DNA of 64,000 nt from Amoebophrya sp. A120. Lineage: Eukaryota; Protista; Dinoflagellata. The notes beneath the pieces are model-generated. The model ran no database searches and had not been told where the DNA came from. It worked only from the letters and a program-made list of their open reading frames with translations. This document shows, in pieces, positions 11,877-38,076 of the stretch; position 1 is the stretch's first letter; each line of letters begins with the position of its first letter. Location of the stretch: the NCBI GenBank assembly GCA_905178155.1, contig CAJINV010000003.1, positions 10,726,298 through 10,790,297 on the forward strand, in the 5' to 3' direction. The position numbers and the translations under genes are program-made.

Positions 11877-12018
11877 TATAACACGCCCAACGATTAAATC
11901 CTAAAAGAGTTTAAAAAATGCTATCTAGCTTTTGAATTTACTATGCGTATAGCTATGTAAAACGTGATTAGCTAGGTGGTTAAATAGCTATGAGGAACGA
12001 CCGCTCCGGATGTGTCTC
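11877..12018 (+). repeat. Left terminal inverted repeat (142 bp)
   Basis: Exact reverse complement of 37935-38076; starts TATAACACGCCC. Confidence 0.98.
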
Positions 12019-13030
12019 CTAACGCTGAACCCTGTGCGACGTCGACGGATGTGGACCGTGGAGATTGAGGCGCGAAGTGTCTGTGATGTAACGAATTGGT
12101 AATAGTTGTGCAAAGAAAAACTGCTGAGAAATTGAGATGTGTTGTGTGTGTGTAGCAACCAATACAAAAACAAAGATATTTGCAGCATAAGAAATACAAA
12201 GTCACAAAGTAGGCTTCGAGATCGAGAAACAAAACGAATTTTATCGACTTAGCTCCTTCGCGAAAGGTGGAAACTGTGTTCAACGCACTGGAAATAAAGA
12301 ATACCATTTGTGGGCTTGATAAACGTCTTTTCCTTTTGATTGTTGTTGGGCTGGATCTGAAAAATGCCGCGTTGATGTTCGTCTTCAGAGTTTTCATTTT
12401 CCTCGTCGTCTTGCACTGTTTCACTTTTCAATCAAAGCAAAACCGTAGGGAAATCTGATAATCTCTTTTTGCGTTCCAATTGCGGAATCCAAAAACTTCA
12501 AAATGCCGCCGAAGAAGATCAACATTGGGACCGGCGCGGTTTGATGAATGACGCAAACCAGACAGCTGCCGGATTTCTTAAAGTTTAAAATTTTTTTTTC
12601 AATGTTTGTTGAACACCAGAAGCAACCGATCCTGCATAGTCACGTCGCTGCTGTGTCGCAGCAGCTTGTGTTCTAGTTAGTTTAAGCACTTCCTTGGTGT
12701 GCATCGCGGTGACATGAATAAAGCCACCCACGCACTTTACGGAAGGCGTTCTGTCTGTCCGCAACACGAACTCGCTTAGACGATAGTCGGCGGCTCCTGT
12801 TCGGCTGCTTCTCCTGCCGTGTGTTCGCTGCTGGTTTGTGAAGCATTATTCATATGCAAACGACATGCTTGTGATCATTAGCGCCATACTGACACACTAC
12901 ATGCATATCTGAGAAGTTAAAGGGCTAAAAGCTTCACAGTGCAGATCCGGTGAGATTTTACCTCCGCCTCAATGTAGGATCTAAATGCGTATTTAAAGTC
13001 TTTTTTTCACGAAGATCAAATTCTCATGAG

Positions 13031-14430
13031 CTACTGCCTTCGATCTTCCCAAGCATGCAAACCACTGCACTGTGAAGCTTCAGCCCGATATGTCAGTGCT
13101 CGCAAGCAACATGAGAGATTTTTTTTTGATAGAAGCGGTTCTTTATCAAGTGCAATGCAAATGCAATGCACGACCACCATCCGTGGACCGCTGGGTTCTC
13201 CGCGCTTCCATTTTTCCATCCGGCGGCGTTTTCGCATCTGTTCCTCTTTTTCCTTTCGTCCTTGTTCGCCGCCGGTCCGCTGCATCCGCTGCTGCCAGGA
13301 TATGCAGAACAAAAGCGCTATGGCCATCATCAACTCGCAGTCGCGCGCGATCATGCTTCTGTGCAAAAATGGCGATCACGTGCTGCATCGTCAAAACGAT
13401 TGTCGACTTGACGTCGTGTCGCAAAAAAAAGATTGCATTGAATCCGGAACATGCGAAGCGGGGTTTTTTTGAAATCGATGTGGTACATACAAAACGCGAC
13501 ATAGATACAAGGCAATCGCTTTTTTTGCCTGAGTTGAAGAAGTATTCCACGATGGGACTTTGGCATGACCTTCACCACCGCTTATTGATTTGGCCATAGC
13601 TCTTTTTTTTGGATATTCGCGGCGTCCCATGCGATTTCCATCAGGTTTGATCGAATCAAACAACCGCTGTCCGCTCCTTCGACGCGCTGGCTCCAATGCC
13701 CGTAGTCCAAATTTCCGCTTCCGCCGCAGCTTCTCCTTTCTGCTTTCCGTGTCCACCGTCCGCTCCGTCACGCGCAGCTGCTCCTCTCGCCGGCGCAGCT
13801 GGTCGTCCACTCGTCCTCCGTCGCAGCTGCTCCTCCACCCGCACTCGCGGGAAAGCCCGCACTCGCAGTGCCACCCGCACTCGCAGCTGCTCCTCGATTC
13901 GCGCCAGCAGCTGCTGCCGTATCCACCTTCCACTGAGCAACGCAGCAGCTCCTCCACCCGTCCACGGCGTCACTCGCAGCTGCCGTGACCACCGTCAGCT
14001 GCGTCACGCGCAGTGGTGGCTCGTCCACCCATCGCAGCTGGTGGTCCACCCGTTCTCCATCGCAGCTGCCTTTCCACTCGCGCTCGCAGCTGCTCCTCCA
14101 CCCGCACTCGCAGCTGCTCGTCCGTATCTGCAGAGTCCACCGTCGGGTGCATCGATGGCACCCGGCATCCACGCTGCCTCCACCCGGCATTGGACGATTG
14201 CGCGTTCACGGCATCGGACGGCGGTAAGACGGCTTCAACCGTCCACGCTGCCTCCACCCGCACCCGCTCCCAAGTAGCAACTGCCGTCGAACCACAACTC
14301 CAAGTGGCCCAGAGCAGCAGTCGAACCGCGGCTCCAAGTAGCTGCCGCGCGAGACAGCGCAGCAGAATCTCTCACGCATTCACCACCTGCGGAAGAGGTG
14401 GTGTTGTAACTAGTATGAACTTAAGCTAAT
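13031..14430 (-). pseudogene. Frameshifted repeat-containing coiled-coil ORF (EEQLR repeats), cargo of the transposon
   Basis: Repeated GCAGCTGCTCCTCCACCCG units on +. On the - strand, RVEEQLR-type peptides appear in several different frames. Confidence 0.45.
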
Positions 14431-15164
14431 GCTTTCTCATCAAGTGCGGTCTTTGTTATGAATCAATAAACATACTCACCGAGTAATTCCCTCTTTCTCA
14501 TGTGTCGCTGGTGTTGTAAGTGAAGTAACATTTTTCACAATATCAATTGCCACAAACCGAAAGACATAATACGACACTCTTTTGCATTTGTAATCAATAA
14601 CAGCGCCGCGATTGTTACATTTGCATTCTTCACATGTGAGAAAGAGAAAGGTGATCAATTCGATATTGCATTTGTGGAAAGAACATCGAGGCTTGCATTT
14701 TGAAAAAGCTGTTGCGGTGCACGTTCTTTTTTTATTTTCACTTTTACTCTGTGGTCTCAAAAAGAAGGATTTGTACAGGTCCTTTACTTTCATCGACAAA
14801 TAAATTGCTTGTTTTCGAATAGTCGCATAATCTGGTGGGTTTCTCGAAACAGAAACTTTTGTATAGACGGCTAACAGATACACCCTCGCGTCTTTTGGGA
14901 AAACCCACGCAGATTTATTTTCTCGAATGATGCGACCTCGAAATTATGCTCCAGGTGCACTATCTTTGCATCGCTGCGCGGAGAACGCAAATCCTATTTG
15001 CCCTTTTACAGAGCATACGTTCAAGAGAGAGTGCTTTTCTGCCAGCTCTCTACATGAACAAAAAGTAAAAACTACTGTACAGCACTTACTTCGTGATCAC
15101 TAGACGTTACTAATAAAACACTAATAAATGTAGCGCAATAGCCTTCGCTTTTTTACAAAGCCGA

Positions 15165-18100
15165 TTAGTCATCGGCCAACAGGTCATCCTCCTCGTCTTC
15201 GATGCCGTTGCTGGCCTCATTGTTGTTCACATTGTCGTTGTTGGCATCCTCGATCGGCTGCGGCGCGGCATTCGCGGCGTCCAAGTCATCGTCCAAGTCC
15301 ATAGACACCCTGCGCCTCTGCACGTACATGTCCGGTCGCATCTGCAGCGGCATGGCCTGATCCCCGTCGGCGGGATTGCCATTCGGCCATTTCCTGGTAA
15401 TCTGGCGGTACAGACTGTTACGACCTTCCCCACACGCTAATTCCCAGACTTCATCCGAGTTTTCGAACGCCAAGCTGGCAGCATCAAAGTCGCCTGATAG
15501 TTGTTTTTGTGTAGTGAAGAACATATCTGCATGTCTGTGATGAAGTTTTCTTGCATGAAGTGCAACTAGGCATGAAGATTCGCGTTTGGGTTTTTCATAC
15601 TGTTCTTTCTTCACTTCCTCTCCCTCTTCACAACTCTTTCTCGCAACCGATCTAGAAAACAAAAAGCAAAATCATACTTCCGATAATCGCCGTGGTGATC
15701 GCGGCCTGCGCCGGCAACAGGGTGTACACGCGGAACGCGGACATCATCTCCTGGAAGGCGATCTCGACCTCGTTGTAGGACAAAAGCACTTTGTTCCGGC
15801 ACACGGCGATATGGAAGTGAAAGCATTGTTTCCATCACACTACTTCGTCTCTTTGTCACGCTTTTTCACTTCAAGATCAGCATTGTTTCCAGCTAACATT
15901 GAATCAACATGCGAGACTCGAACTTGTGCCAGTGTTGTTTTTACATGACATTGTTATGCATAGAACCGAAGACGATAGCGTGATGGAAACATCGAATTGC
16001 ACTACATAGTCCAAGTGGGCAGCGACCTGCCGGGCCTTCTGCTCGCCCGTCTCGAGGTTGATCTGGTACTCGGAGTGGACGATGTTGCAGGCGAGGATCA
16101 ACGGACGAAACTGGTTGCGGACGGACAAGTTGTTGTACTCGGCCAACGCAGCGTGGACCTCGTCGCGGAGGGCCACGTTGTGGCTCCCGCCGGCATCCTG
16201 CGTCTGTTCGAACATCATCTTCATCTTCGACAAAATGCTCAGCATCCGCTTCACGTCCATGACAATCCGTTCTTCATCTAGCTTGAGGATCATGGAGCGC
16301 ACCTCCCCGACCAGATCGATGGTGATCCGGGCGGGTAACTTGGCAAAGGCCTCCAGGTCGTTCTCATGGATGGACTGACGCAGGCGATCCAAGCTGGAGA
16401 TGCAGGGGTGCGGCATGTCGTCCAGGGATCCGACGGTGTCGATCAAGTTCTGCATGAAGTCGCGCATGTCATCACGACGCTGTAGTGATGATGGTATTAA
16501 TTTAATTTCAGACTTTTCTTTCCACTACATGCTATGCACATCAAACCGAAGTAAACCGAAAGCCGAAATATGACGTTGTGCCACGTGATGTTGTATTTTT
16601 TACGTTAATGTGTGAAACTGAACCGACTCAACACTGATGTACAAAACAGATACGTACCAGCTGAAACAGTGTCACTTCGACCATCCCGTGGACCTTGTTG
16701 CACACCTTCCAGATGAAGAGTTCACCGCACTCATGGGCATCCAGCAGCTTGAACACGTGCGCGCTGTCGATCGACATGAGCATCGGGTCGTTCATGTGGT
16801 TCACCACCTTGACCAAGCCCTCCTCCAACATTTCCACCGTCGCAGCGGTATTCACAATCTGTACGTAATTTCAAATGCAAGTAGAGGGATTTTCTTTCAT
16901 GAAAGCCTCATTGTGTCATGCGAAAGTGATTGCTTATGCAAGTTCAGAGCGGTGCTATGTATGACATACCGTTTCGAGTTTCATCCAAGATTTATGTTGG
17001 GGCGTTTCGGTCTGGTTGAGGGCGATGACGTCACGCATCTTCAATTGGAGCTTCTGGACCTTCTTCTCGCGGCAGGCGCGGATCACCAGCTTCAAGTTGG
17101 CCTTCAAGTCGGGCATGTGCGTGGTAGGTCCGATGAAGAAACGACCGCGGTTCTCGGCCCTGGTATTAGTATTTTTTTCAATATTACATGAGTCCAAGAT
17201 AGAAAGCGCAATAGTTGCGTCATCGATGAAAAACACATGTATCACTACTAGACTTGATGCTCACACGAAGTACAAAAATACCACTCTGCCACTCCCTGCA
17301 GCGTACGGATCTTGGTGCTCACATTGGACCTCGCCGCGTTCACGATACCCTGGTCGAGACAATCGATGGCTCCGACTTCGCACCAGGCCAACCAGTTGTC
17401 GCTGCAGAATTCAGCGCACCAATCGAACACGTACAAGGCGGACAAGGCGGTGGACTCGTCGCTGAGACTCAACGCGCGGCTCGTCAGGTGTTCCTGAAAG
17501 AAGTTTTTATGCAATTTCAACATGATCTTGCTTTTCTGATCACACAAAATCCCTTTCTTGACGTGCTGCTAGGAAATTGGCACAAAGTTCTTATTTGTCA
17601 TGCAGTGTCGTAGGTACCTTGGCGACAAAGCCAGTTTTTTGAATCTACACAAGACAAGATGCAAGTGAACATGTTGAAATATTTTAGTACCAGGAGCGCC
17701 TGCGCGGATTCATCAGCGGTGCCTCTCAAAACGGTCTTGTCGGAGTCGCGGAACGTCGCGCGGTTATGGTGATGCAAGGTGGGAATTCCTGTTTTGTATG
17801 TTGAGGCCTAGTTGTCAAGTGTTCCTGAGCTGCTTTGTCATGCGTCGCGACATCAAAATAGTTGATGCGCAGATGATTCAAGATGACTCTTTCTAGAATT
17901 GCAAGTTTGTCATGCAGAACTAGACACAAAGTGCACGAATACATCACAGAATTCCCACAATTTACTATCATACAAAATACGATCAAAACGGGTCAGCAGC
18001 AAAACTTCACGAATAAATGTCGGCACCCGTTTGATTGCTTTCGCAATCAGTCGCTCATGACTCAAAGGAAGTCTCTGAATTTCTGCCTGGGACTTACGTC

Positions 18101-18588
18101 CCAGGGCCGCGATTCTCGCGTTAATTTTTGTACGCGTATAATTCTGATCACGCACAAGTTGCTTCAAAGCTTCGAAAATCGACGCCGAATTCTGTGATGT
18201 TTTTTTTTTTTGAATTTGAAACTGAAGTAGCATTGCATCTGTTTCTCATTTTGCATGATGAAGACATTCATTATACCGGTTCATCAGGAACTCTGGTTTT
18301 CAAAAGCATCGCATCTTTTCCATCTAAGTATCTAACAAAACGAAAGCCCATCTTTACTGTCATGCGCGTCGACTCTGCGACGGCCTGAGCCACCTGCTCA
18401 GTATCATGTCGTGTAAGGCGCGGTGGCATGAGTGGCTCAGATTCCTCAGAACTAGACTCACGATCAAGAATACTCTCTGCTGCTAAAGCCTCACCAGCCC
18501 ACAGTGTAGCGTTCAGAAGTCCCAAAGTGTGATAAGTGCTAGAGCGCTCTGATGTAGGAGTACTGCGAAGGCTGGATTGGCTGTTCAT
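15165..18588 (-). CDS. Multi-exon hypothetical helical protein with acidic C-terminus (transposon cargo)
   Basis: About 9 GC-rich coding blocks (e.g. 16010-16480, 16655-16860, 16970-17162, 17285-17495) separated by short AT-richer introns, several GT-AG. Ends ...EDEEDDLLADD*. No family recognised. Confidence 0.7.
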
Positions 18589-19993
18589 AATAATCGGCTA
18601 CGGTTTTTTATTGAAAAGGACGTTCAAAGAATTCAAATCAGCAGCTACCTCGCTCTGAAAAAAAAGAGAAAGAAAGAACCGACTCTGTGTGTGCAGCGAT
18701 ATCAATTCGCTGAGAAACAAAGAAGCACTTCTACTATATTTCAAATCTGTAGTACGAAACTGGATCTGTGATCACTTTTCAGTCATCATGTGCGTAAAAT
18801 ACACTTCAGGTGCTGAAACTTCTATTCATCAAGACCTTCGACGCGAACACGGTGCAGAAGATGTGAAAACGAGCTCAAGCACGCTGGCAAATAGGTACTA
18901 CTACTTTCTTTTCTGGTTTTGTACTGTAAATATGACGCGCAACTGATGCGAAGTATGCAGCAAAGTTATACACTGAAACTGTACAAGATTTTCGCGTGCT
19001 TTTTTGTTACTTTTCCACTATGTTTGCTATGCTGTGTTCATCTATCCCTTTTCCAAGCTTCAACTCAATGCTTTCCCATGCCATGCAAGATGTGTTACTT
19101 TTCTTCATGTATTCTATTACTATTTCTTCACTTTCATGTACTACATCGCGTCGCTTTTATACCTCTGTTAGTGGACGTCTACTACTGCGAAGCCTACTAC
19201 TGTAAAGCGTGCTTCTACTATTTGTTATTCTATCCTACATTCTATCAGGTACTATTGGAGGAGTCGATCGAGAAGGTGACGAAGATCGTGCAGCCCACCA
19301 AGTAGACACCATGGTCGTGCAGGTCGACGCGGACGTGGCCATGGAGTTCATCGCGGTCTTCGGTATGCATCTGCAGGATCTCCTTGGCAATACAAACTCA
19401 GGAACGCTGCATTACAAATCCAGAAGGTCGCCTTCTTGAAGTACAAAGCTGCCAGCATGACAAGCTCATGAACGCATCAGATCCAGGCTGCTCTACATGG
19501 CGGAGGTCATGCCAAGTCGATCCTGGTCACCTTCTCGTCGATTCCGGCTACAGATGATTGAAGTTGGGAACGTGAAAATCTAGATTTTACAAGAAGAAAG
19601 CTGTTCATTTTATTAAGAATACTTCAACTAGAACGACTCGCGAAAACTTAAGAAGGAGAGCAAGACTTTGAGTAGAATTATTGAGGCAATTATTATCTCA
19701 CTATTTTCAAAAACATATGTCCATTATTTTGTACGTTCCACGATGCTACGATCACGGTTATAGAGGTCTCATTATTTTCTCGAATGGACAAAATAATTTA
19801 TGTTTTTCTACATAAGATTTTCTTAATATTTTCTTAATATTTTGACTACCAAATGATCACGCTTTCTACAGAAGAGTCTTAAAAGAGAGAAAGTGAGTGC
19901 TTATTTTCTGAAGCTGCCGGCTGCTGCTGGAGAACGAGTTGCGTTCCCCCCTGGTCCTTCCAAATCGTTGTGTTCTTGTCGTCGATCCGCCCG

Positions 19994-22900
19994 TTACGCG
20001 GTGCCCATTTTCCGCAACAGGTTCTCTGCGGATTCCGGCTCTGGTTCTTCCGCAATAGCAGGCAGCTTTCCGCTCTTCTTCTTTCGCTTCTTCTTCTCCA
20101 GCAGCACGGGCAACTCATCACCATCCAACGCGTCCTCCGCTGCCGGAAAATCGTGGTAATGCGGCGCGACAAACGCAGGGTCCAAGCACTTCAATTCACC
20201 GTCGCCGATTGTCGCTTCAGCTTCGATCTCCACCCACTTCTTCCCGTTCACGGTTACCACCTGCTTCGCGTACTCCAGAATCTCGCTCATCGCCTCGTCG
20301 TACTGCAGCTTCAGCGCATCCACGTGGTGTTGGCCAGGAAAAGCGGTGGGATCTTTGTTGTGGAGGACGGCTCGTGGTGCTATGAAGCGCGCACGGCAAC
20401 TCCACACGTTTAGCATCAACTCGGTGAAGAAGTGGCCGCTGTGCTCGCCATGCCGCATGTACTTCACGGCGTTTTTCGTTGCCCCGGTCTTCATATTCAA
20501 GCACCGCGACGAATAGCAGTCCGCGATCTGCTTTTTCATCGTTCCGTGGATGCATTCCACCTTGAAACGCAAGCTGTCCTTGGCTTTCCCGCGGTTGTCG
20601 GACTTGCTGGTATTTTCGCTGACCTTGAAGCCGGAAATTCGCAGCGGATGCATCCGGGATGCGACGATCTTCTTCTGCCAAGCGAACTCCTTGCACTCCC
20701 GTCCATCGATCTGCACAGTCGCCTTCTGCGACACTTGGGAATCCAGAGACGTCTGCTGCGTTTGGGTATCCTTCTGCTTGCTCTGCGAAGAGAGCTCCGG
20801 AATAAGGTCGTCAGCAGCCAACGCGGCATCTTCATCCACTTCGCGGCGCAGCCGCACCACGACGCTCTGCTTCTCCTTCACCACGTAGATTTTGTCCTGT
20901 ACTTGCGGGTCAGCAGCTTATCCACGCTGCAAACGTAACCAAGCACCCGGTCTGTTCGGAGAAACGTCACATATGCATGTTTTTTGCATGGCAAAGTGCT
21001 TGTATTTCAGTCGCAGCTTCGGCTGCGGAGCAGTGCTTTTTTATCCACAGCACCAACCGCAACACCAGTCGCTCGCTCTGGTCGTATTTCTCCAGCAACC
21101 GACCACGAAGCTGCTTGGTTACGTTTCCACCGATACAATACGCAGTGCCACCGGCCGCATCGTCCGCTGAACGTTATCATTGAGAGCGTATCTCTCCATC
21201 AATGACATCTGCTTGATCGCGTCCTCGGAGATGGTCTTGTCGGGTTGCGGCTTCACTTTCACCGTCTTATCCAGGTTAATCGTGACCTGCTCTCCGCGAC
21301 ACACGCACGGAAGCGTCATCTTTGCGTCCGGTAGTAGCTTCATCGTGAAGAAGCTGTGCGCCTCCCCAAGGTCGTAATCCACGTCGCAGTCGGAGTAAAC
21401 CATCACGCAGGTTGGCGCGAATTTCTCGTCAAAAACGCCCTGCACTTCGTCTTTTCCAGCAGGCAGCTTCTGCAGCTGTATCGCCTTGAAATGCGCCGGA
21501 CCGCACATGATCTCCAGGATCATGAAGTCGTGCAGTTCGTTCGTCTCCTTGTGCCGCAGCTTCGTGATCAAGACGTTTGTCAGCAGCTTTTTCAAGTCGG
21601 AAGCCAACTTTTCCACCGCGGCAGCAACCTTCAAATCTCCGTCGATGATCTCCGCTTCTGGTTCCGGCTCCGGCAGGTTATCTTCCAAGCTTTCGTCGTC
21701 CTGCAGGTGGTGCAGCTGCAATTGCTCCACATATGAAGAAGGTATCACAGAAAAAGCATGCTTTTTCTTGCAAAAAAGAACTTGTCATGCGCAAGTGTTG
21801 CATTGCAAATTGTGGGTCAAGCGAAACAAGCTCGCATTCTTTTTGAAAAGCTAGTAGTTCTTCACTGTGATACCATTCTTCGTTTCTTTTGTATCCGTGC
21901 TGCACTTCTCTTTCAGCGTCTTGTTCTTCGCCCGCACGTACTTATCCAATATCGCCGCGACCAGTGGCACCTTCCGCGCTTTGACGCGTATTTCCGGCGG
22001 AGATTCGTTCTGCAGTGGCTGCAGGACCCGGGAGGTGGAGATTGGCAACAGCTTCCGGTAATCGTTCTTGTCAGTGACAAACTCACTACACACTGCGTCT
22101 TCCACCGCGAGGTAGTAACCACGCTCCGCCAGCGCCACCGGCTCCGCGCGATCCGGCCACTCATCCTCGCTTTCGCTTTCCGACTCGAACTTGGGTCCTG
22201 CTTTGACTTCTTTTTTGTTCTGCAGCTGCGCCATCGCTTCGTACTTCGTCTGCTCCGCAGCACTGCCCCAACTGTTCAGCAGGTGCGTTGTCTTCAGCGA
22301 TCCATGCTTTCCTTCCTGCTTTTCCACCGTCTTGTACTGGTGACTCCGTTTCATGTCGATTGCGCGCGGAACGTGGTAGGTGCGCTTCTTCGCCGCAGGT
22401 GCGCGGGCCTGCGTGTCATCGTCTGCGGGTGTGGTGTCGAACCGCTTTGCTTCGTCCACAGCAGAATCCCTGCAATTCTGCCAGTCCGTCCTGTTGCAGG
22501 CCGTGTCGGCCCCTGGTGTGCTTTTCAAACCGTGGCGGACTTCCCGCGATACCCGCTTGTACCGGCCGATTTTCCTCTCCACGTTCTTCGTCAGCCGGTT
22601 CCGCCGGTACAAATAGCAGCACGCCGAATGCAGACGACTCTTCCGCTGCTTCGGCGGCTGCGCCTTGTACCACGCCGCGAGGCTTTCCAGTGCCATCGTT
22701 CCCGGATCCCCCTGCTCGTAGTTTCCGTCCTGCCAGTTTTCCAATTCTTCGATGCACTTGGAGCGGTCTTTGAACATGTACTTGACGAGCCAGGAGTCGT
22801 GTTTGTTGGTTGAAAACTCGCGGTACCGCATTGATGTAATCGAGAAGTACAATCCCAACTGCGCCGCAACGCGGTGAAAGTCGATCTGTAAAGAATTTGT

Positions 22901-24907
22901 CATGCATTTGATGATGATGTTGGAAATTTGTCATGCGAAAACAGGTTTGCATTAGTCAAGCAATCTTCAACGTCGATACCAAGGCCTCCTGCGCTGCGGA
23001 AAATTGCACGTCCGGCTGCCCGACCCGGCAAAACAAGAACTTCATGTCAGACAAAACTGCCTCCCGGTTCCCGAGGTATTTTACTGCGTCGTTTACCTCC
23101 TGCAAAAACGTCCGCCACAGTTTCTGCGATTCGTCTCGGTCGCTCGACTTCAAAAGTTCGCGGCAGTAGTTGTCCGACGGGTTCAGGATAATCATCGCCA
23201 TCCAGATGCTAATGTTGTAGATGAACTGCATATCTGGGTCGTGTTTTCAGATTTGGAAATTTGTAATGCATTCTGGAAGCGACGACTCTGTAATGCATGT
23301 GGTTGCTTTAGCATGACATTTGCATTGCAAAATCTAGAACGAAGAGCCACGCGTGCTCTTTCTGCGTCATATCTTGAATCACAACAAAATATCAAAAAAA
23401 AAAACTTGTGCTTCCGCTCATGTTAAGCTGGAATTCGTGGGACAAGTATTGTTCATCTCCGAGCTTTATCGTCGACCCCAGCCCGATGAGAATCAGCGGC
23501 AAACAAAATGCACACATCGCCGCGTACTGTGCCAGTGCGATGGACACAGTTAGCCATCTGGTCCAGACGGGCAATCTGGTTCCTTTGTACAATTTATGTA
23601 CCGCCTGCGTAGCCTGTTCCCGTGCGGCGTGGGGCACCATCAGGTTGGTGCGTTTTACGTTGCATTTCAAGAAGAATTCTTTCTTCTTGATTGGAATCGG
23701 GATCCGGTTTACGAAGTCGACGAACTCCGGCTGCGGTGCTGGGTTGAAGGTTTCGCTAGACGCCTGCGAGATGTGCACTTTCATCTCTGCCAGCTTTGCA
23801 TGCGCCCGATCCTGCATCAGCTTGATGCTCATCCCCTGTAAGAAATAAATAATAAATTTATTTTGCATACTATCCACATCTTCACAGCATCACCCTTTGC
23901 ATGACAAAAATTCTCATACCTGCAGATACACCCTCCGTTGCCATCGCGTTTTGTCGAGTCCACACAGTCCCAGATACAGCTCGACACTGCTGCGGCCGGT
24001 GATGGCGACTTGGTGCGCGAGGCACCGAGTCGGCCACAGGATCACGTTGCTCCGCAGCCAGGAGTTGGACAGGAATACGGCGCCCACATAAAACAAACTG
24101 TTGATTGTGGATCCGCCACTATCAGTCGAGGGACTAAAAATTTTGACGGTCGCCGGGTGTAGATTTTTATACCACTCCTCCGGTCGGATGTAGCTGAGCA
24201 GCTGCTCAGCCACCTCCCACGCTTCACTGAAGCCCCGAAAACAGGATGCGTTCTTCTCGCCCAGCTTGGCACGGTCAAAAAAAATATCACAACCAAACTC
24301 GATGCTTGATGTGACTCGAAAGATTAGTGCTTCTGCATCACAAGTTCTGCATTACAGATCAGCTGCGAGGCAGCTGGTATTTATTATCGTCAGGTGATGT
24401 TGACTATCATCTGCGGACGTTTTGAGATTTGTCATGCAAATAGAATGAAAATGATCACACCAATCAGCATCGAGTTTTTTCATTTGGATACTTGCTGCTA
24501 TTCGGGTACAATACTGCATGTGCCGGAATGCACACGGTGCCGATACTGTCGTGCCCCCCGATGATGAAGTACACCGTGCAAAACATGAACATGATGTGCG
24601 CAAATATTCGCAGCCTGCCCACTGTCGACCCGGACCAGAATAGTTGTTGGGTCGTCGATCCGTCCATTTCGCATTTTACATCGACGACCTCGTACTTGAT
24701 GTCGTTGAAGTACGTCGATGATGTGCTTTTCGCGTTTCGGCACAGCAAACTACTCAACCTCCACGCGGCGCGAGCAGGCACTTCTCCTAACCCGTAGAAG
24801 AAGTCGAGCGCCGGATTGTTTTCTCGCGGCACAGGAGGTGGAGCAGGTACTTCCTCTGCTACCACCAGGTCCGTCTCCGCAGGTTTCCGCTTATTCTGCT
24901 TTTTCAT
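19994..24907 (-). CDS. hAT-like DDE transposase with long C-terminal extension; two apparent 1-nt frameshifts in the 3' part
   Basis: Motifs in hAT order across exons: CEMDGST (D1, ~24663), STDSGG (D2, ~24122), RCLAHQV (CxxH, ~24013-24024), LPVWTRW (TRW, ~23554-23562), LTKNVERKI (E, ~22578). Followed by an HMG-box-like segment (LLNSWGSAAEQTKYEAMA). Confidence 0.8.
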
Positions 24908-25003
24908 CTTGTAAAACCTGCGGGGATACTACGACGCAGATGTTAGATCAACAAACCGCGGCGGTATGTTGATGTTACAACCAGGGGGGAAGCTGCTAGT
25001 ATT

Positions 25004-26745: not shown

Positions 26746-26979
26746 TTGCGGAACACACTGACCACCAAAACCTTAACAGGGGCGGAAGCGACGACTTCGG
26801 AACACAAAAAGGATGACTTTTTGTTTGAAAATTTTCAAAATTGTGAAAATTTAGGTCCTTCCAAGGGATCGATCGACGACCAAACAGAGGCGGCCGTCGA
26901 CGGATCTTAAACTAAAGAAATCCGGCAGAAAATGGGACGAAAATGATCATCCACCGCGCCGGTCCCAATCAACAGCGTG

Positions 26980-28837
26980 ATGGAAATCACCAAAGCGAAA
27001 GTTGGTGGCCCATCTAAGGCCGAGAAGGAGCTCGTCCGCGCCGCCCTGGATGAGATGGATGAGGCCGACCTGGCGGATGAAGAAGGATTCGTCTTGCTCT
27101 CGGAATTAGGCAAACAGGCCTTCCCCGGGACCATCGCCCGTATATCTTGTTTGTTTATCTGTGATGCTATATTCATGATTTTTTGATGATGATTCATAGT
27201 AATAGTTTGATACTGTGCGCGCACGTGTTGCTTCAGCTTGAGCATACAGACTGCGAGTAAAAAGCTCGTTTGTGATGCATGAAAACAGAAGCAGTCTACG
27301 CTGCTTTTCTATGTTGATATAGATAAGGAGAGCATTGAAGTGCCGCAGCATCTTCATCGTCATGCTATCGCGATACTGTATGCTCTATGACGAAGCAATA
27401 AACACGTGCGCAGATACATCTTCCAGCTCATCATCACACGCAAACGAATCGTCATCATCTTCATCGTCCAGGCTACTCCGACATCCCCATCGAGATGGCC
27501 CAAGTGATTTTGTCGACTCTGTGCCGGAAGAACGTGCTGTGGGTCGCGCGGTGCGTGTACACCACCAACCAGCTCCACTTCGTGTTGACCAAGATGCGGA
27601 TCCCGGTCGCGTTGGTAGCTGATTTTTGTATTTAGTTACGGTGTATGTGTTTTCAGCATGCAACTCATCTTGCGATTAGGTCCTAGCAAAACAGATGATT
27701 AGAGATTCCACAAATGCGCATGCTCGTCACATCCACTTTTGCATCTTCGTCATAATTATTGCGTCAAAAATAATACCAGATCATCGCCAAGGACAGCAAG
27801 TGCAAGCTCCGCAACTTGCAGCAGACCACCCGGAACCTGACGCACGCGGGTTCGCACAGCACCTGGTCCATCGTGGTGGAGCATTGCCCGGAACCCTCGA
27901 AGTGCATGTTGACGGACGTGGCGAAGAGCGTGTCGCAGGCGGAGCGCCAGGGCATGCCGACCCCGGGCATGTTCAACCCGTTTGGGATGACGCCGCAGTT
28001 CTCGCAGTTTGGAGTGACCCCCTCTGGCATGATGGGTATGACCCCGCACCCGCACGGCTTCGGCCCGATGAACATGCCCTCCAATGGTGGCGGTTTTGGG
28101 TCCTTCCAGATGACCCCCGGCCCGAGCGGAGCGGTATAATGATTTAGCACCTGTTATTAGATTTTTTTGAACATGCATATTTGTACGAGTGCGAAGATCT
28201 CGTGCGAGAAATTCTTTTGGAGCAAACAACTATCATCTCATCACAGGTGATGTTCGGGAACCCCATGGCGATGCAGTCGATGATGCCGCCGGCGATGCCG
28301 AACCAGGCCAACGCCGGTTCGTCCACCACCAACGTCACCAACATCGGAGTCAACGCGTCCGCCATGCGTGATTTCCACAAGAAGAACATCACGACCCCCG
28401 GTGGTCCGTGCTTGCCCACGGTGTTGGAGTTCCAGGACCCCGTGGACCCCGAGAAGAAGCACTCCTTGTCCATCCGCGACACGGACAAGAAGAAGTCCGG
28501 CAAGACCCCCGAGGAGAAGTGCAGCGACATGGTGTCCTCTGTGTTCAAGGACGATTTGGGCTCCTTTTTTGCCGGGAGCCTGTGGGAAGAGGACAAGCGC
28601 GTCTTGGACGAGATCAAAGCTGAGAACGACCGCTTGGACGCGGAACTGGAGAAGCAAAAGGTCGCCGAAGAAAAAGAAAAGGCGAAGAAGGAGAAAGCCG
28701 CCGCCAAGAAGGCGAAGGACGCCTCCAAAACAGCCGCTGACAAGAAAAACAAGCGTAAGTCTGGTTCCTCGTCCGGCAAGGCCCCGGTCATGAAAAAGAT
28801 GTCCAAGGCGAAGCCGACCCCGAAGAAGAAGAAGTGA
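26980..28837 (+). CDS. Multi-exon hypothetical protein with M/P/G-rich middle and Lys-rich basic tail (transposon cargo)
   Basis: Exons ~26980-27138, ~27472-27615, ~27780-28133 and 28248-28837. The last intron is GT-AG and in frame (GPSGA-VMFGNP). C-terminus KAPVMKKMSKAKPTPKKKK*. Confidence 0.75.
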
Positions 28838-28912: not shown

Positions 28913-29059
28913 GACATGTAAACCCGCAGTGTGCCGTCGTGAGTAATGTTGTACTGCATGGCGTGACGCATGATCCCGTTTGTATTAGAAAAAAGGACGC
29001 CTCATAGCGTCGAGGGTGACATTACCCACCACGGTACTACTGCTGGTTTACACGTCATA
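28913..29059. mobile_element. Small foldback/MITE-like element in intergenic DNA
   Basis: Imperfect ~37-bp inverted repeats at 28913-28949 and 29019-29059; the right end terminates in TCATA like the introners. Confidence 0.6.
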
Positions 29060-29709
29060 ACACCACTAGTGTATTGTGTATCATTTATAGGTAGTTCCAC
29101 TTATGATGAAGTTTCACAAAATAAAAAATATATTAGAAATTTGAATTAAAAGTAATTCCATATTTTGCGCTGTCTTTGTCGGTTGCCGACAGGGCAGCAC
29201 GTATACTACTTACTGCACAGAAATGAAAGTAGATGCTATTGATTAATCGACTTCGGCCTTGTAATAAGTCAATACCTTCTGCAGCCTCACCGTGAATTTA
29301 GCAGCTGGTAGGTCGCGCCAGCTGCCGCACTTCTAGGCGATCAACTATGTTTTCGTGAAGCGGGGAAAATACTGCTGCAGAAATTCGCACTGGACAATCC
29401 GCACAATAGCTTCACACCGAAGCCTGAGATGATTGACAGTTGAGATTCTGAATCATGTGATGAGAAAAAATAAAAAAGCAAGTCTGTTGCTCGTGCCACT
29501 AAATCTGTTGTTGAGGAGGTGTTCGCAGTTGTGTTTGCTGCTGATTTTCGGTTGATGAGATGCACGGTAGTTGAGATGTAGAAGTGGAAGAAGAGACGCG
29601 CGTTGATCGTCGCAAATGTCGTCTCGTTTCGTACATGGTGCCAGGTCCCCGCGCTACCCTGAGTCTTTGTGTTTTGTATAGACGACTACTGTAATACGAC
29701 AATTATGGA

Positions 29710-32700
29710 GTGACGCAGTTCAATAATATGAATCCACCCGCGGCTCCGCCCGTGTACCGCGCGGCAGGAGCGTTTGAGAGACGTCCGGAGGACATACCGA
29801 TGCAGATACCTGCTGCGCATCTTCCCAATATTCCTGCCGTCCTCAAACCCGCGGCTACATTGTACACGGAAACTCCGATCCAGGGCGAGGAGTTTGGCAT
29901 ACCAATGCAAAAAATCACACATCCGCTCACGTGTAGACATTTCGTTTTGTATCATGAAGAAAAAACAACATCTATCTCGCGTTCCGCATGATAGTTTGCG
30001 CGCAAAACTCCTAAAGACATATTCTTGCGGCTCTGCCACCTTTCCTTGGGCCGCGCGAATGCAAGAATTCATGCGCGCTACCACATACACTAACAATCTG
30101 AGAAGCTGATGCTGTTTGCCCATCTACACGTGAAGGATGTGTGAGGTTTTGCGTTTGATATGTGTCTGACGAAGACTACGAATACGACAGCGAGGAGGAG
30201 CCGTGGACGGAAGATTTACCAGCCGGCAAAATCAAATCCAGTCGCGCAACCCGATGGGACAAGCCGTTTCGGTCCGAGCACAGTGGCCGCCCCGTCTACA
30301 AACTCAAGAGCATGGGTATGAGAGTGAAGATGTGGATTGCTTGCGTTTACGGCTACAAGGATACAAAACGCATATATATATATATATAGCGCATTTGAAT
30401 TTGTAACGCAGGACTGCATGAGATCAGCTGCAGATAAGCAGTAGTCGTGCTTGGTTGTGGTCTACATCTTCGCCAAGTCATACAGCCACCCACGCCGGCC
30501 TCGTATTTCGATTGGTTGAAACGCATCGTGCCGAAGGACTTGTCCGAAAAGTGTGGGATCACTTGGGAACCGTCCCCCGAAGGCGATGAGTGGGATGTGG
30601 TATCGTGAATTTTGTGATGCGCGATTCACACGCAGAAATGACATTTGTGATGCAAAAAAATATACTTGGACATCATATCTCCACATGCCTCCTCAGGTAA
30701 TGTGCTATCTCTGGTGGCGGGTGACCCAGAGCGCGAATATGGTGCTCGCTAAATTCGGAACCTGCGCACTTCGAGACGAATTGTACAGCCTCAACCCGAA
30801 CAACTTGTTTCTCTGCACGGAAGCCATCCGGAAGAAGTCGGAGGAGATGCTGGGACGGCAGGGTGCGGACGATGCCAGATTGCGAAGCCAGGCACTTATG
30901 CATAGTTTTAACATTGACCATGCCGTCGCGAGTAAGGTTATACTGCATGGGTGTACGGGAACAAAAAAAGCACAAGTAGTACCATCGTGAGTAATGTTTT
31001 GCTGCATGGCATGCTTACGAGAAAGTACATGGGTCGCAGTGCCGTCGTGTGTAACTTTATCCACGAGGAGAGCATAAGCATCAAAGCTCCAGGCTTTCGC
31101 ACTGCGGAGATACCAGGAATTCGTCATCATGAGCCGCGCGTTTGCTTGTGATGCCGATAGGGATAAAGAATGCTCCTTGCTTGCCGGGATTTGGCCGGAG
31201 TTGTCCTTCGGCAGCTTGGACTCGGCGGCTTGCCAGATCGCGGACTCGAGTACCGTGAGGAAAAACGGGGCGTGGGGCTCTCACGTATAGCACTTGCTGC
31301 CGTCGTGAATAATGTCTTGCACGATGGTACTGATTTAGATGAACTTGTCATGCATTTTGAGTCCATAGCCACGTCGTGCATAAAGTTACGCTGCATGCTA
31401 CTACAATGCAACTACTCTCCCAATACAAACACCAGTTCACCTACAGCGATTACGTCGACCCGAAAACAATGGAAAACCACTTGCCGCCGAGTCACCCGAT
31501 CTCTGAGGAGTTGCAGTTGCAGCCGAACCCGTTTCAGGTTGGTGGGCTATCCCGGCTCACCAGCCGAGTCCCCGGCACGAAGTCGCAGTACGTCGGGATG
31601 TTGAGCCTCTCGATGTGGATGAACTGCTTCGGCGAAGCGGTGATCAAGGAGCGATTCTGCGACAAGGGAAAACCGTGGCGCGAGATGAACTTGGACTACC
31701 TCCGGCGCACAAAGTCCGACGGTATCCGGTCGCTCATGGAGTTTTGCATCAAGTCGGATCAAGGGTCATCCGAATTGCGGTACAGCCAAAGCCAGATTTT
31801 GTTTCTCCCCGGCGCCTACTTCGACGGCGATCTGCATCGCGGTAGTAATGACGTCAAGGATTGTTGTCCGGAATTGAAAACCGCGAGGGACCTCTGGGAC
31901 ACCTGGGCGACCGGGCCGTGCAGGACTGCGCAGAACCAGGCGGAGTTTCTGTTCGCGAAAGAAGAACTGAAGGAAAAAGTCAACAAAGATCCCGAAGCGT
32001 CTGCTGGTAGGAAAAAGTGGCGGAGTCAGCTGCTGAAGGAGCAGAACTGCGTCAAAATGGAGGACGCCTTGGCGAAAAGTATATTCTGTGTTGTTTGGCG
32101 ATTTGTGATGCAAAGTCTCAGTGTAACTTTTCAATGAAATAGCCGGCGGTTACCCTCCGGTATAGGGGGGGGGTCAAGTGACCCCCTCCAGATCGATCAT
32201 ACCATGCAGGATAGCTTCAAGTAGTGTGTTTATAGACAGGGGGTTATAGGGGGGGGTCTGGCCCCCCTCTGAGAGGGTGTCCAGATGAGTCATTTTTGCA
32301 TGACAAATAACAAGCAACTCCAACCTGCAAACAACACAGAATTCAACTTCTTTCACGCGTCGCAGTCCCGATTCCATGGCGATTCGGAGTGGCGGAGCAT
32401 GATCCAGAAGTGCTACTACCTCGTGCTGTGCACGCTCTCCGCGATCATCGATAAGCAGAAGATCCACGGCCGCACTATGAAACTGATAATAGCCCGGCTT
32501 CGAGAAGTTTTGATGTAGTGCATTTCGTGCTTGATGAGCATAGTATTTGCATTACAAATTCTACAACGAAACTCTTCGAAATCGGGCTCATTTTCAAAGG
32601 ATATTTGAATTCATCAAAAGCGACGAAATCGAGAAGATTATGGAGGAAAACGGCTCCGAGTTGCTGCAGGCGAGGGATTTGTCGAAGGAGGAGCTGAAAC

Positions 32701-35549
32701 TCAAGCCGAAGTGGCTGGGCTACCACACCGAGCTCTACAAAGAGCTGACGGATTTCCACTACAAGTTGTTCAAGGTGCAGGAGCGGGTTGTTGCCGGGCA
32801 CTACTTCCATCATCTGTTGCTCCTCCACTTGGAAAAAAGTGGCCGCTTCCGCGCCAACGTCGACTCGTCGACGCTGCTGAACTGCTACCAGCGGTACGTG
32901 GATCCGACTGCAGTGCGGGGTCAAGTGCTGGCCACCACAGCAATCCAGGAGGCGCGGTCGAAAAACCGCAATAGAACCTGGCGGAATCTGACGTCGGATT
33001 TCTGCAAGGCCAGCAATGTCACTACGGACCACGAAGGCCCATCTTTCCGCTGCTTGCAGAAGTGCGTCAACGTGTGGTGGTATCAGACGGGCGACCCGCA
33101 GTACGGCCTGTTCGAATCGTACGCGAGCGGCAGCTTGAACCTGACCAAGGACATGATGGAGAATTTGGGCGATTACTACGTGTGCGATTTGTCGGTCAGT
33201 GCGAAGTACAACATCAAGGCCATCGTGGATCTGCCACCGGAGGAAGCCAAGCAGCTGATCGGGGAATGGGCCGGTCGCATCATCCGCTGTATCCCGCTGA
33301 CCGAATACATATGATTTTGCAAATCTGTCATGCTAAATGCGTGCTATTGCGCAGGGGATGAGATCAGCTGCTAGGGCAAGCCGCCTCCTGTTTGCATATG
33401 GAAATCATGCTGAAACTATTAGCATCACGCGACGATATAGAAGCCTGGCTTCGCAGTATTTGCATGACAAACTCGCCAGTGAAAAACTTGTGATGCAAAA
33501 CGCCGATCAGGAAGTTCTTCTCTTTTGTCGCAATAGCATGCAAGTATCATGATGGGAGTTTGCTTTTCATAGCGTATCCAGGAAAACCAGTTTCGGGAGC
33601 AAAAATTAACCCAGGGCCAACGACAGCGGGCGGGCCGGCACTTGATCTCCAAGCAGATCGACAAAGTCCGGCACTCCAACGATCAGCCCCGCATGTATCC
33701 GCCAAACCGGGTGAAGAATTGCAAGGACTTGCACATTCTGACGCCGCGCGAATTCAGTGAAATCCTGAAGCTGATTGTCCGCCGCAAAAAACCCGTGCCC
33801 CTCCCGCAGGACTTGAAGATGTTGCTGTTCTCCAACCACGAAAAGCGGGCGCGTGGAAAAGATCGCGGTCCGGAAATCACGAAGGCCTTCCAGGGGTTGA
33901 AGTTCATGGCGCAGATGGCTTGGCAGAACTACAACAAATTGCCGCAGGAAGTGAAGACCATTTTGGACCACGCCCTCAGTCAGGAGTTCGCTTCTACTCC
34001 GGCAAACAGGCTGGGGCTCCGGGGCGTGCAGGCGGTGTCCATCATGAACACGAAAACCAAGTCGAAGACGCAGATTAAGGCGAAGGCGGTTTTGGGAGCT
34101 CGATTCGCTGACGACCGCGCCTGGGATCTGCAGCTTGCCAACGCCGAGAGTCTGTGGCTCGTCGGCTGCCCCAAAGATGAAGATGAGAAAACCGCAGATC
34201 GCGTCCGCATCACGGCGCACGATAACGGGTGGGCGCAGGGATTGTACTTGGTGCGGGTCGGTCCGAAGATTTTCCGCATGCCTACTTCCGACGAGGAAGT
34301 GCGGAAGTACGGCGGCATGGTCACGGATCTGAAGATTTACGAGGGCACCGCGAAGCGCAAGTCCACCAATACATCTGCTGCCCCGTATTTCCACCTCAGT
34401 GGCCAGCTGTGGGCGCATCCCAACGACTGGATGCCCATCATGTGCCCGTCTATTCCGGATGAATTGCAGCTGGCGCTGTTGCAGCCCATCCAGAAGTCGT
34501 TCCCCCAGATCACGGGCGAGCACCTGCAGCTGCTGGACGAGTACAACAAGGCTTCTCTTTTCGAAATGATTGAAAGCGATATCATACTAAAAACCTTTCG
34601 CTCTGGATAAGTTTCTCTGTGTTTTATCTTTTCGCCATCATCTAATCTGTCATGCGAATGTTTTCAATACAAAAGCAAACATATTTGAGTGCGTAAATCA
34701 ATCCAGGGTGAATGATTTTTAGCTTTGATATCGGGAGTGAAATTCGATGAGGAATTTGCAGCGCGGATCATCCTCATCACCACCGAAGAACAAGAGGAAG
34801 AAATGCCGACTGCCAGTTTGCTCGCTCCAAAGCCGAAGAAGAAAGCGGCCGGGAAGAAGGTTCTGTTTCAGCAGGAAGTCCTCGGTCGGCCGTTCGGCCG
34901 CAGCTCTCCCATGAAGGACGGAATCACCCGCCACGCCGCCATCTACCGGCACAGTGTTGTTTCGACCATCCACGAGCCGGAGAAGGAGTATTGCGCCATC
35001 GCCTCCCACCGCGTCGATGGCGGTGAAAAAGAGGACAGAATCAGGATCCGGTGGAGTAACAATTACGTGCCTACGTTTGTGAAATATGCGCCGTCGACGA
35101 AAGCAACCGGCGATGTGCAGACCAATGTAGTCACGGAGTTACTTCCTTTCGTGATCTGCGAGTTTTCGCTGCAGCGCGACCAATTCGAATTGCGCCGCAT
35201 TGATGAAGGAGCGGGTATTCTCCTGAACTGCGCCATCCCGATTCTCGACTCCGCCTTCACCACGGCCGAAAACACTGATAAGATGCGAGCGGCTATTGCT
35301 GCCAAAAAGGCGGAGATCGAAAAGGAGCAGCAGGAACTGGAGGCGCAGCTCTTGGAGGAAGAGAAACCGATGGACATCCTCGATGAGCTGCCGGGTGATG
35401 AAGGGTTTCTCGAAGCCTATGGCGCGCGGAACAAGAACCAGTCAAGCACAACCAACAAGCGACCGCAGTCCCTCCTTGAGCAAACTTCTTCCAATGGTAA
35501 CAAAGCAGCCGGTAGCTCGTCTTCTTCTTCCAAGCTACAGAAAAGGTGA
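29710..35549 (+). CDS. Large multi-exon protein (~1500 aa), possibly a second highly divergent hAT-like transposase
   Basis: About 11 exons, most of which join in frame after removing TAT..ATA or GT-AG introns. The spliced junction 33310/33576 gives IPLTE(Y)IQENQFR, which has the spacing of the hAT PxTSxxxERxFS motif. Upstream GDEW, GADDA and CNFIH motifs are weak. An HMG-like segment follows (MAQMAWQNYNKLPQEVK). The gene is well supported; the family call is tentative. Confidence 0.6.
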
Positions 35550-36149
35550 TGATTTGAACCTGACCAAAGTTGTGCTGTCAATATTTCGTTTAATTAATAT
35601 TAGAAAGTGCGCGGGGACTTGAGTCGTGAAACAATATTTTTATTACACAGACTGCGGAAGTCTTACAGGTTCGATTTTATAAAATCAAAATATAATACTA
35701 CATCAGTTTATTACTGTTGATGCTTTTCCAGCAACACAGAATCCAAAAGCTGCTTGTTGTAGCAGCAACAAGCATTGAAAAATATATACAACCAAAGATG
35801 TTGAATTTAGAAAATACCCGTAGGATTAGCTGCAGCGAGATGACGGCTTCTCCGCTGCATATTTTTAGGAAACTACCTCGACTGCACACGTATAAATGAT
35901 AATATGAAATCTTCTCAGGTCAATTTGAAAGAGCTCTATTTGTTTCATGAAAGCCCAACTACCGATAAGAAAAAAGCAGCAAAAAATCAAAAAAATTAAA
36001 CACAGCGCTTGAGCTCCATTTTCAATGCATTTTTGTGCCAACAAATCCGAAAATCAAAAATGACAAAGCTGCAACGTGGAGAGCCGGCGCGTGTTGTTCG
36101 GTGTGGTTTTCTAGAAGATGGAAAAGTCGTCGCTTGTCTCCGTGAAAAT

Positions 36150-37552
36150 TTATTGTGGTTGTTGTGTCGACGAAGAAGAGGATGATTGTGATTCCTGGTT
36201 TTTGTCGTGTTGAAGGATCTGCTGCAGCCTGGTAGAAAAAGTACTTTCCAGATCCGCGCGCACGTAGAATTGTTCCAGTCGTCCATTTGGTCGCGGGCGC
36301 TTCACCCCGGGCGCATGAGGGAAGATGTCGAGGGTCTTCTTGCCGTTGCTGTTTGTCATGCACTAATTCGCATTCATGGTTCTTAGTGGCACAAGCACTA
36401 CGTAAAGCATAAACCTAACATCACAAACAAGATGGCGCGGAGCTACTTCGTCTTACCTGCTGTCGCTGGCCACAATGCCTGCTTCTTGCAGGACCTGCCG
36501 TGGCACCAAAGCGCTGCCATGCAATTCCCCGAATGAGCCCGCACCAAGATGGCGCCTGCTGTGCAGCAGCAAATAGTCGAAGTCATTCTCCCCGTATGCT
36601 CGTCCGGAAGACCTGGTTATTGAACGAGAGTCATTTGATGTGCTTTGGCTTATTGGCAGGTGTCGCGCTTGCACGCCAGCGGAGAATATACGGAGAGAAC
36701 AAACGTCGTGCCTTTTCATCGAGCATCGAAGGCTCAGCGTTGTCCCCTTCTCCCGGCGCGGATACAAAGCCTTCTCCTGCACGCGAAGTTTTTGAGTAGG
36801 ATTGCCGCGCACGGAAAGAAGTCCGTCGACCTGCATGAACTCGTCGATGGGAGGCTCGTAGACCAGGTCGGTGTCGTGGATTTTGGTCAGGAAAAGCTCG
36901 CGTGCATTTTTCTCCACCAGCGTCTCCTGGCTATAGGCCTGGAGAATAGCCATCGGATTCAGATGCCGAATGGCCGCGTGTCCGCGCCAGATTTGTTGCA
37001 ATTTCGGCTTCAGGTTTTCCACCGTAACGCACCCGCTGGCGATATCGAATTTTTCGTAGTTTTTGACCCGGTGGACCGGCTCAATGAAGAAGCGGGATGT
37101 GTCACCAACTGCCAGGCCCAATATGAAAAACACAATTGGCAACACTAGTGCCCAGCATCACAATACGCATGACAAATAGGCACTGTTTCTTGACATATGT
37201 AGGCCCATGTATGAGTGATCGCGTCGCACATGCAAACGAAAATAAAAAAGCTAGCCACTAGTGCTGCCACTTGTGTTGGCATATCTACCAGGATCGTTCC
37301 GTGCAACCGGTCCCGCTCGTTGTTGAGGATAAAGCGCAACCGGCGATCGAAGTCATCGCTCCAGTTAAGAGTAGACTTCAGTTGTACTCCATTCCAATGG
37401 TCATCCTGCGCGTCTTCCAATGCTGCTGGACACAATCGAGCGAACATATCTGAAGTGGTTTCGAAGATAAGTTTAATTTGGAAGGAATCGGAGATGAGAT
37501 TAACAAATTCCCGCCGAGCCTTGCGCTCGATCTCCATCGGTTTCGTTCCCAT
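36150..37552 (-). CDS. Putative PD-(D/E)XK-fold nuclease/DNA-binding protein, MepB-like (3 exons)
   Basis: VDGLL...RVQEK (D..QxK) followed by YGENDFDYLLLH and GSALVPRQVLQEAGIVASDSSNGKKTLDIFP, which resembles the MepB family C-terminal pattern. The last intron is GT-AG and in frame; the first is bounded by a GCACTAGTG direct repeat. Confidence 0.6.
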
Positions 37553-37934
37553 TTTTGTTCGTGCCAAAAATCGATCGTAAGCAGAGTTGATTTAGAGAAG
37601 ATATCGCGAGCAAAAATAATCAACACGTCACAGCTACGGGGCTAACGAACCAATCAAAAGCACTGGGCAGAAAATTCAAAACAAATGCCTTCATCAAAAT
37701 CCCAACAGTTCCCCCCGATTTCTGTGCTGTCTTCCCTCAATCCGATGAACTGCTTATTTTTGTCCACCGCCAGGCGCATTACTCTTGAGACCGATGCACT
37801 GCAACAGGACTGCGCACTGCTTTTTTATCTGCTAGTAGGAGGAGGCGTTTTTCGAAGATAGAGCATCCAAATCATTTGAAAACCCAAATAATGGCCATCG
37901 ACGCAGTCCCGTGCGGTTTCACGCCCGTCGTTAC

Positions 37935-38076
37935 GAGACACATCCGGAGCGGTCGTTCCTCATAGCTATTTAACCACCTAGCTAATCACGTTTTACATAG
38001 CTATACGCATAGTAAATTCAAAAGCTAGATAGCATTTTTTAAACTCTTTTAGGATTTAATCGTTGGGCGTGTTATA
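37935..38076 (-). repeat. Right terminal inverted repeat (142 bp)
   Basis: Exact reverse complement of 11877-12018; ends GGGCGTGTTATA. Confidence 0.98.

Follow-up and report, generated by a model that had tools for sequence, protein, structure and literature searches.

Is the 26.2-kb unit at 11877–38076 of this 64,000-nucleotide stretch of Amoebophrya sp. A120 DNA (the whole stretch is called the window below) a single transposon, and which of its proteins would move which ends? The unit is bounded by long terminal inverted repeats (TIRs) and a target-site duplication (TSD), and an earlier sequence-only reading described it as one giant transposon combining a hAT-like transposase with a 5-bp TSD and TATA termini. 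According to our analysis, it is probably a 14.4-kb TIR element nested in an 11.75-kb one, each likely mobilised by cut-and-paste through a predicted DDE transposase of its own. What stands of the earlier description is a large, intact, multi-gene TIR unit with a perfect 5-bp TSD. The unit is nonetheless made of two elements, and the "hAT with a 5-bp TSD" falls because the hAT-like protein belongs to the inner element, whereas the 5-bp TSD and TATA ends belong to the outer one.

The outer ends and their empty site

The boundaries of the two elements are as follows.

11877..12018, plus strand: left TIR of the outer element, 142 bp perfect, starting with TAT and with CCA at positions 11–13
37935..38076, minus strand: right TIR of the outer element, 142 bp, pairing with 11877..12018
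11872..11876: left copy of the outer TSD, AGTCG
38077..38081: right copy of the outer TSD, AGTCG
12525..26968: inner element, 14,444 bp with TTGGG...CCCAA ends, inside the outer element
12519..12524: left copy of the inner TSD, TCAACA
26969..26974: right copy of the inner TSD, TCAACA

The inverted repeats at 11877–12024 and 37929–38076 are 99% identical over 148 nt. Their outermost 142 nt are perfect, and the TATA termini that had been claimed are confirmed. Evidence on copies comes from contigs of public sequencing runs placed on the window, among which the DNA run X1 contains all sampled words. Nearby copies of the host repeat, like loose ends of runs X1, X3 and X4, show the unoccupied site with only one AGTCG, which is therefore a true target duplication. 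The junctions of the outer insertion were also found in sample S2. In X1, the unitig of the 142-bp outer TIR has a depth of 88 compared to 44 in the flank, and the outer stretch 26939–37964 forms one single-depth unitig. Short derivatives carrying both outer TIR ends were recovered as a 1,777-bp contig in X1 and a 234-bp contig in X3, which shows that the outer ends have been mobile in the absence of the inner element. Once the inner 14,444 bp and one copy of the inner TSD are subtracted, the outer element measures 11,750 bp.

A second element nested in the first

The inner element has a perfect 16-bp TIR starting with TTGGG and a 14-bp subterminal inverted repeat (12566/26928). Its TSD is perfect at 6 bp; an 8-bp reading requires one mismatch and 7 bp is possible with asymmetric ends. 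Depth in X1 is 42–44 in the flanks, in 11989–12554 and in the unitig 26939–37964, and reaches 70–75 only between 12525 and 26968. Unitigs start and end at exactly these two positions, so that the breakpoints coincide to the base with the inner TIR and TSD. A two-allele bubble at 18810–18816 has a depth of 35.5 out of 75.1. X1 contains about two copies of the inner element; the second one lies elsewhere, is ~99% identical and is free of the outer ends. Moreover, the inner insertion splits an outer gene, O1, after codon 7: once 12525–26968 and one TCAACA are excised, the exon at 26975 continues the frame of the ATG at 12503.

Over 11000–26500, 57 differences are listed in X1, 51 of which are transitions. 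Among 40 of these differences, 13 fall in modelled exons (12 alter a residue, one is silent and none creates a stop). The exonic differences, together with a 4-base insertion in the last exon of inner gene I1 in the X1 contig, fit neutral decay of at least one inner copy. The inner copies show no signature of CpG methylation: 12 of 38 transitions lie in CG, compared to a background of 29%.

Another X1 contig follows the inner left end over 12525–12579 of the window and then diverges; it is a further relative or a non-autonomous derivative of the inner family. Within the inner element, 13390–14430 is GC-rich and internally repeated in units of 24–28 nt, with 13747–13895 resembling 13983–14122, and a 269-bp stretch at 19269–19537, between genes I1 and I2, contains an 18-of-20 inverted repeat. 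The raw reads of X6 gave one read over 11000–26500, and X3/X4 gave a single 36-bp partial match within the inner element; neither is evidence on expression.

Genes of the two elements

The earlier description counted about seven intron-containing genes. We count five, with provisional exon borders: O1, O2 and O3 in the outer element, I1 and I2 in the inner one.

29728..35549, plus strand: O2, predicted DDE transposase, nine modelled exons that encode 1,391 aa and contain no stop
12503..12524, plus strand: first seven codons of O1, severed from the gene by the inner insertion
26975..28837, plus strand: remainder of O1, with a lysine-rich C-terminus
36150..37552, minus strand: O3, predicted PD-(D/E)xK restriction-like nuclease, intron 37120–37286
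19994..25790, minus strand: I1, hAT-like predicted DDE transposase, 1,340 aa in seven modelled exons, the 5' exons being uncertain
15165..18588, minus strand: I2, about 750 aa in about 10 exons

In the mechanism that we propose, the 142-bp TIRs with their TAT ends would be bound by O2, which would excise the outer element and insert it through a 5-bp staggered cut. The outer element would also carry O1, now split, and O3, whose product is predicted to be a restriction-like nuclease and whose transcript appears spliced in one probable RNA run. The TTGGG ends would be the substrate of the hAT-like I1, which would produce the 6-bp duplication.

O2, the predicted transposase of the outer element

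No gene between the perfect outer TIRs is larger than O2. Its layout is D-(125)-D-(25)-[GP]xxH...R[FW]...E, with D237, D363 and E715 in provisional numbering and ~350 residues from the second D to the E. A phmmer search with the O2 core exon against 1.84 billion representatives gave 7 matches at E≤0.001, of which 6 are related. The seventh, P0007, was discarded as an unrelated beta-propeller protein. Two relatives can be named, P0004 (CAD7963427.1, from Amoebophrya A25) and P0005 (g20176, from AT5.2), at 19–27% identity, and one cluster of relatives includes an MMETSP transcript. P0004 is colinear with four O2 exons (blastp E 3e-64, 23% identity over O2 226–1301). Across the rows that cover each position in this small alignment, the first D is conserved in 2/2, the second (DQGS) in 6/6 and the E (DPQxGxxE) in 3/3; a His stands 25 residues past the second D in all six. 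The closest relatives, P0001 and P0002, are fragments at 46–50% identity; both lie on NCBI contigs of 6,716 bp, which are probably one and the same.

Other searches added little. The top score of the O2 core in ESM Atlas was 0.83, metagenome scans returned no relative of O2, sequence searches of PDB gave nothing below E 0.3, and word-based searches with the P0004 region and the O2-family alignment returned P0004 only.

The two Asp, the His motif, the long insert and the late Glu make up a hAT/MULE-type architecture. The layout published for the C/DxxH group, as set out in the part of PMC3706591 devoted to it, is matched by O2 except at the C/D position. Judged by its motifs, O2 would represent an unclassified lineage, so far found mainly in Amoebophrya, with the architecture of the hAT/MULE/P/Kolobok/Dada/IS256 group. 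The sequence-only reading was right to raise a possible undescribed DDE lineage; the protein of interest is O2, which it had not singled out.

O1 and O3

Neither O1 nor O3 has a Pfam match. We take the motifs of O3 to be those of a PD-(D/E)xK nuclease; its nearest ESM Atlas clusters are TaqI/MjaI/Mrr (0.85–0.87), which is a lead only. The 167-nt O3 intron at 37120–37286 is skipped in one contig of X3, which we guess to be an RNA run and which comes from one study, but not in the DNA run X1. This intron is itself a TAT...ATA unit plus five bases.

I1 and I2, the inner genes

As the sequence-only reading had noted, D, D, CxxH, TRW and E occur in hAT order, and all of them lie in a single minus-strand gene, I1 (EMDGST, STDSGG, RCLAH, TRW and NVER). 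In the provisional model these correspond to D85, D203, C236xxH239, RW 364–365 and E603. The order is that given for Kat1/Hermes in the relevant passage of PMC4763223. Database, metagenome and viral-contig searches found no relative, Pfam domain or PDB match for I1. A word-based homolog search with an I1 exon retained 0 of 90 candidates, and neither the exon of I1 containing the E nor O3 had a relative in viral contigs. Two weak metagenome loci were dismissed as chance, one being a PolX-like frame and the other a stop-containing frame. The Pfam C-terminal hAT domain was not detected in the exon 21854–22930 at E≤10, a test weakened by the strong divergence of the host. Taken on its motifs, I1 may work like a hAT transposase; we call it hAT-like and leave its membership unproven.

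I2 aligns colinearly, motif on motif, with I1, though not significantly (20 of 300 shuffles score as high), with CLDQ in place of CLAH and KSW in place of TRW. It may be a paralog of I1 that has decayed. Between I1 and O2 there is no sequence relationship: 284 of 300 shuffles score as high as the real pair. I1 and I2 were also tried as members of the O2 family, and alignments and shuffles gave no support.

Alternative explanations

Several observations weigh against two autonomous elements as described here. Only one full-length outer copy is evident in the contigs of the public runs, and one-base-asymmetric readings, with a 6-bp outer and a 7-bp inner TSD, also fit at this single site. When 25.9-kb sequences are simulated, 9 of 100 contain a perfect 16-bp inverted repeat by itself, so that the nesting call depends on the combined signs; contig depth is not strict copy number, and the argument is carried by breakpoints and allele bubbles. 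The O2 family has G or P instead of C or D in the C/DxxH motif (6/6 rows), and R[WF] occurs in 2/3 long rows, being absent from P0005 in the alignment. O2, P0004, P0005 and I1 have no Pfam, NCBIfam, PHROGs or PDB match. AlphaFold with Foldseek, which the sequence-only reading had put forward as a check, did not help: the model of the P0004 core has a predicted local distance difference test (pLDDT) score of 41 and Foldseek finds nothing with it. Fold prediction having failed, the transposase function of O2 is an inference, as are catalysis, fold, the autonomy of the elements and the host identity. The O3 model has a pLDDT of 30. Finally, the O2 homologs could be ordinary host genes.

In one unlikely alternative, the elements are nested as described, but O2 would be a host-type protein that was captured or domesticated, and a transposase from another locus would move the outer element, itself non-autonomous, in trans. 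Such a reading would agree with the missing profile and structure matches, with the single homolog each from A25 and AT5.2 and with [GP]xxH in place of C/DxxH. It accounts less well for acidic residues and a His kept in DDE order at 19–27% identity, or for the position of so large a gene between perfect TIRs, stop-free through nine modelled exons; moreover, word-based searches are insensitive at this distance, one having missed even P0005. We regard as very improbable a single 26.2-kb element with TATA TIRs that are recognised by the hAT-like I1, which would also make the 5-bp TSDs. With its perfect outer TIRs and TSD, the unit as a whole could be physically mobile, and the two insertions may have come in either order. 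However, the inner part has its own TIRs and TSD, exists in a second copy without outer ends and splits O1, and I1 shows no sequence relationship to O2; the breakpoints already contradict a single element. The least probable of all, with hardly any chance of being right, is an endogenous Polinton-like virus or virophage, with long TIRs and a 5–6-bp TSD from a retroviral-type integrase. The TSD length of Polintons resembles that found here, and the SDQGS motif of O2 recalls integrases. Size and long TIRs also resemble those of Polintons, given as 15–25 kb in the passage on them in PMC6431247. As the sequence-only reading had concluded, the unit is nevertheless not a Polinton by its genes: Pfam showed no PolB, capsid, ATPase, protease or rve match in 37 open reading frames (ORFs) of the elements, nor did PHROGs or NCBIfam. 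The genes are intron-rich, the distance from the second D to the E is ~350 residues, and two queries had no viral-contig relative. Two nested elements, each with its own predicted transposase, remain our preferred reading.

Introners of the window and the outer element

The introns of A120 give the outer ends a wider interest. In their account of A120, Farhat et al. counted 29,850 repeated introns (introners), with ends made of TAT, seven variable bases and AAA and with 3–5-nt direct repeats; the same account reports no transposase in the genome and rules out a general transposase-driven spread (PMC7789003). Among 21 of the 58 A120 introner rows of a 2025 dataset, 17 are classed as "TIR DNA" and all 21 have the superfamily "Unknown" (PMC12130899).

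The window contains 35 left and 40 right TAT-N7-AAA motifs, which form 68 pairs within 3 kb. Flush 5-bp duplications flank 5 of these pairs exactly and 8 with at most one mismatch, compared to 0.01 and 0.26 on average over 200 simulations. At lengths of 3, 4, 6, 7 and 8 bp, there are 0, 1, 0, 0 and 0 exact duplications. The introners are listed below.

553–1451, 1486–4199, 4239–4525 and 4673–5061, plus strand: four TAT...ATA introners in a host Rab GTPase gene
63061..63387, plus strand: 327-bp TAT...ATA introner with an exact 5-bp TSD inside a host frame, which its removal restores
51438–51619, 52143–53580, 59674–60011, 61608–61970 and 62042–62400: further TAT...ATA introners

Flush duplications of 5 bp flank all four Rab-gene introners; they are exact at two of them and have one mismatch at the other two. 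Removing them with 5 nt each gives a continuous Rab frame over 553–5061, and Pfam finds Ras on 4370–4723 (E 1.9e-12). Because of the exact 5-bp duplications and the restored frames, we read the introners as footprints of a TAT-ended transposase with 5-bp TSDs.

The introner at 1486–4199 is at least 2 kb long, with tandem repeats of 25, 29 and 64 bp and an assembly gap (N, 2929–3674), and that at 52143–53580 is a 1.4-kb TAT...ATA element with nested inverted repeats (52315–53398; hairpin 52766–52952). A 35-nt motif (family D8) at 28931, 30920, 30979, 31297 and 60824 occurs in O2 introns, downstream of O1 and at 60824; it probably belongs to an introner family.

Terminal bases and TSD length serve as hallmarks of transposon lineages. 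The outer element shares with the introners of this window a TAT start, inverted ends and a flush 5-bp duplication. It differs in being 11.75 kb long and coding, with CCA at positions 11–13, whereas introners are 0.2–2.7 kb, non-coding and TAT-N7-AAA. The introners of A25 start with TTA. With CCA in place of the AAA of A120 introners, the outer element probably represents a sister family rather than their direct partner, and a three-base terminal match is a thin link. The O2 lineage is thus a candidate introner transposase, not a proven one. Tentatively, and with more doubt than confidence, we suggest that O2 is the first member seen of a new DDE lineage with TAT...ATA ends and 5-bp TSDs, one that has diverged beyond the reach of profile searches and of which a TAT-N7-AAA sister family would probably be the introner motor.

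If this is true, the O2 lineage supplied the motor, so far missing, for the tens of thousands of introners from which the non-canonical introns of Amoebophrya arose. Two DDE-type genes in the window look intact and are missed by Pfam, one of them between TAT ends and 5-bp TSDs like those of introners, and the question of an introner transposase thereby becomes directly testable. If the introner link fails, two large unclassified protist transposons remain, one nested in the other.

The target repeat and neighbouring host genes

The outer element is inserted at the edge of a host repeat.

38077..38549: host multicopy repeat with a unit of ~90 bp, three copies here

Multicopy units stand in tandem with TTTAGGG motifs at 38077–38549 and 11682–11876. 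TTTAGGG motifs, non-canonical introns with inverted ends and the named homologs of O2 suggest an Amoebophrya-type syndinian as the host. The summed depth of the ~90-bp unit exceeds 1,000 in X1 and is 220–470 in the S2 runs. We rejected a small-RNA gene as the outer target, since Rfam and tRNA searches gave no match and folding z was -1.1 to +0.9; the repeat could still be an unknown small RNA gene or resemble a short interspersed element (SINE).

The long ORFs flanking the element resemble host genes, and Pfam shows no transposon domain in them. One, at 44361–48986, encodes 1,541 aa, towards the end of which lies a DXD glycosyltransferase domain (PF04488, E 1.5e-10); another, at 38737–40479, has a weak F-box-like match (E 0.002).

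Comparison with known systems

We found no literature description of either element, though one may already have an entry in Repbase or Dfam. The sequence-only reading had set the unit against the canonical hAT TSD of 8 bp. This contrast does not hold as such, since hAT families with 5-, 6- and 7-bp TSDs have been described (hAT5, hAT6 and hAT7), and the passage concerned assigns hAT5 and hAT6 to the animal Blackjack lineage (PMC12730594). Neither I1 nor O2 has a detectable Pfam hAT domain. The inner element resembles hAT in the D, D, CxxH, RW, E order of I1 and in its short TIRs, and its TSD, if read as 6 bp, fits hAT6 and not the canonical 8 bp; unlike hAT, it is 14.4 kb long with two large genes. 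The outer element shares the 5-bp TSD of hAT5 but differs in its 142-bp TIRs and in O2, which has [GP]xxH and no detectable similarity to I1.

In layout, O2 resembles the C/DxxH group (MuDR/MULE, P, Kolobok, Dada, IS256), with a His motif ~25 residues after the second D and a late Glu, and the TSD falls within the 4–10-bp range given for that group in the same section of PMC3706591. That source describes Dada elements as 5–11 kb long and intron-rich, present in the alveolate Perkinsus, without TIRs, with small-RNA gene targets and 6–7-bp TSDs (PMC3706591). The outer element, in contrast, has long perfect TIRs, a 5-bp TSD and a target repeat without an Rfam match. CMCT/Transib elements need CA..TG termini as well as C(2)C and H(3-4)H motifs, according to the part of PMC12730594 that treats them; the termini here are TAT..ATA and TTG..CAA, and the comparison is by termini alone. 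Unlike Polinton/Maverick elements and Polinton-like viruses, the unit yielded no PolB, integrase, ATPase or capsid genes in Pfam, PHROGs and NCBIfam.

Size is not new by itself, since TIR elements of 10–15 kb with extra genes are known, and nesting is ordinary. Among multi-ORF cut-and-paste elements, the cited passages include the 16–20-kb EnSpm of Chondrus (PMC6431247) and the TET-carrying fungal DNA transposons, large elements with extra genes (PMC6431247, PMC12730594). The elements described here differ from both in their transposase and in their cargo, a predicted PD-(D/E)xK nuclease.

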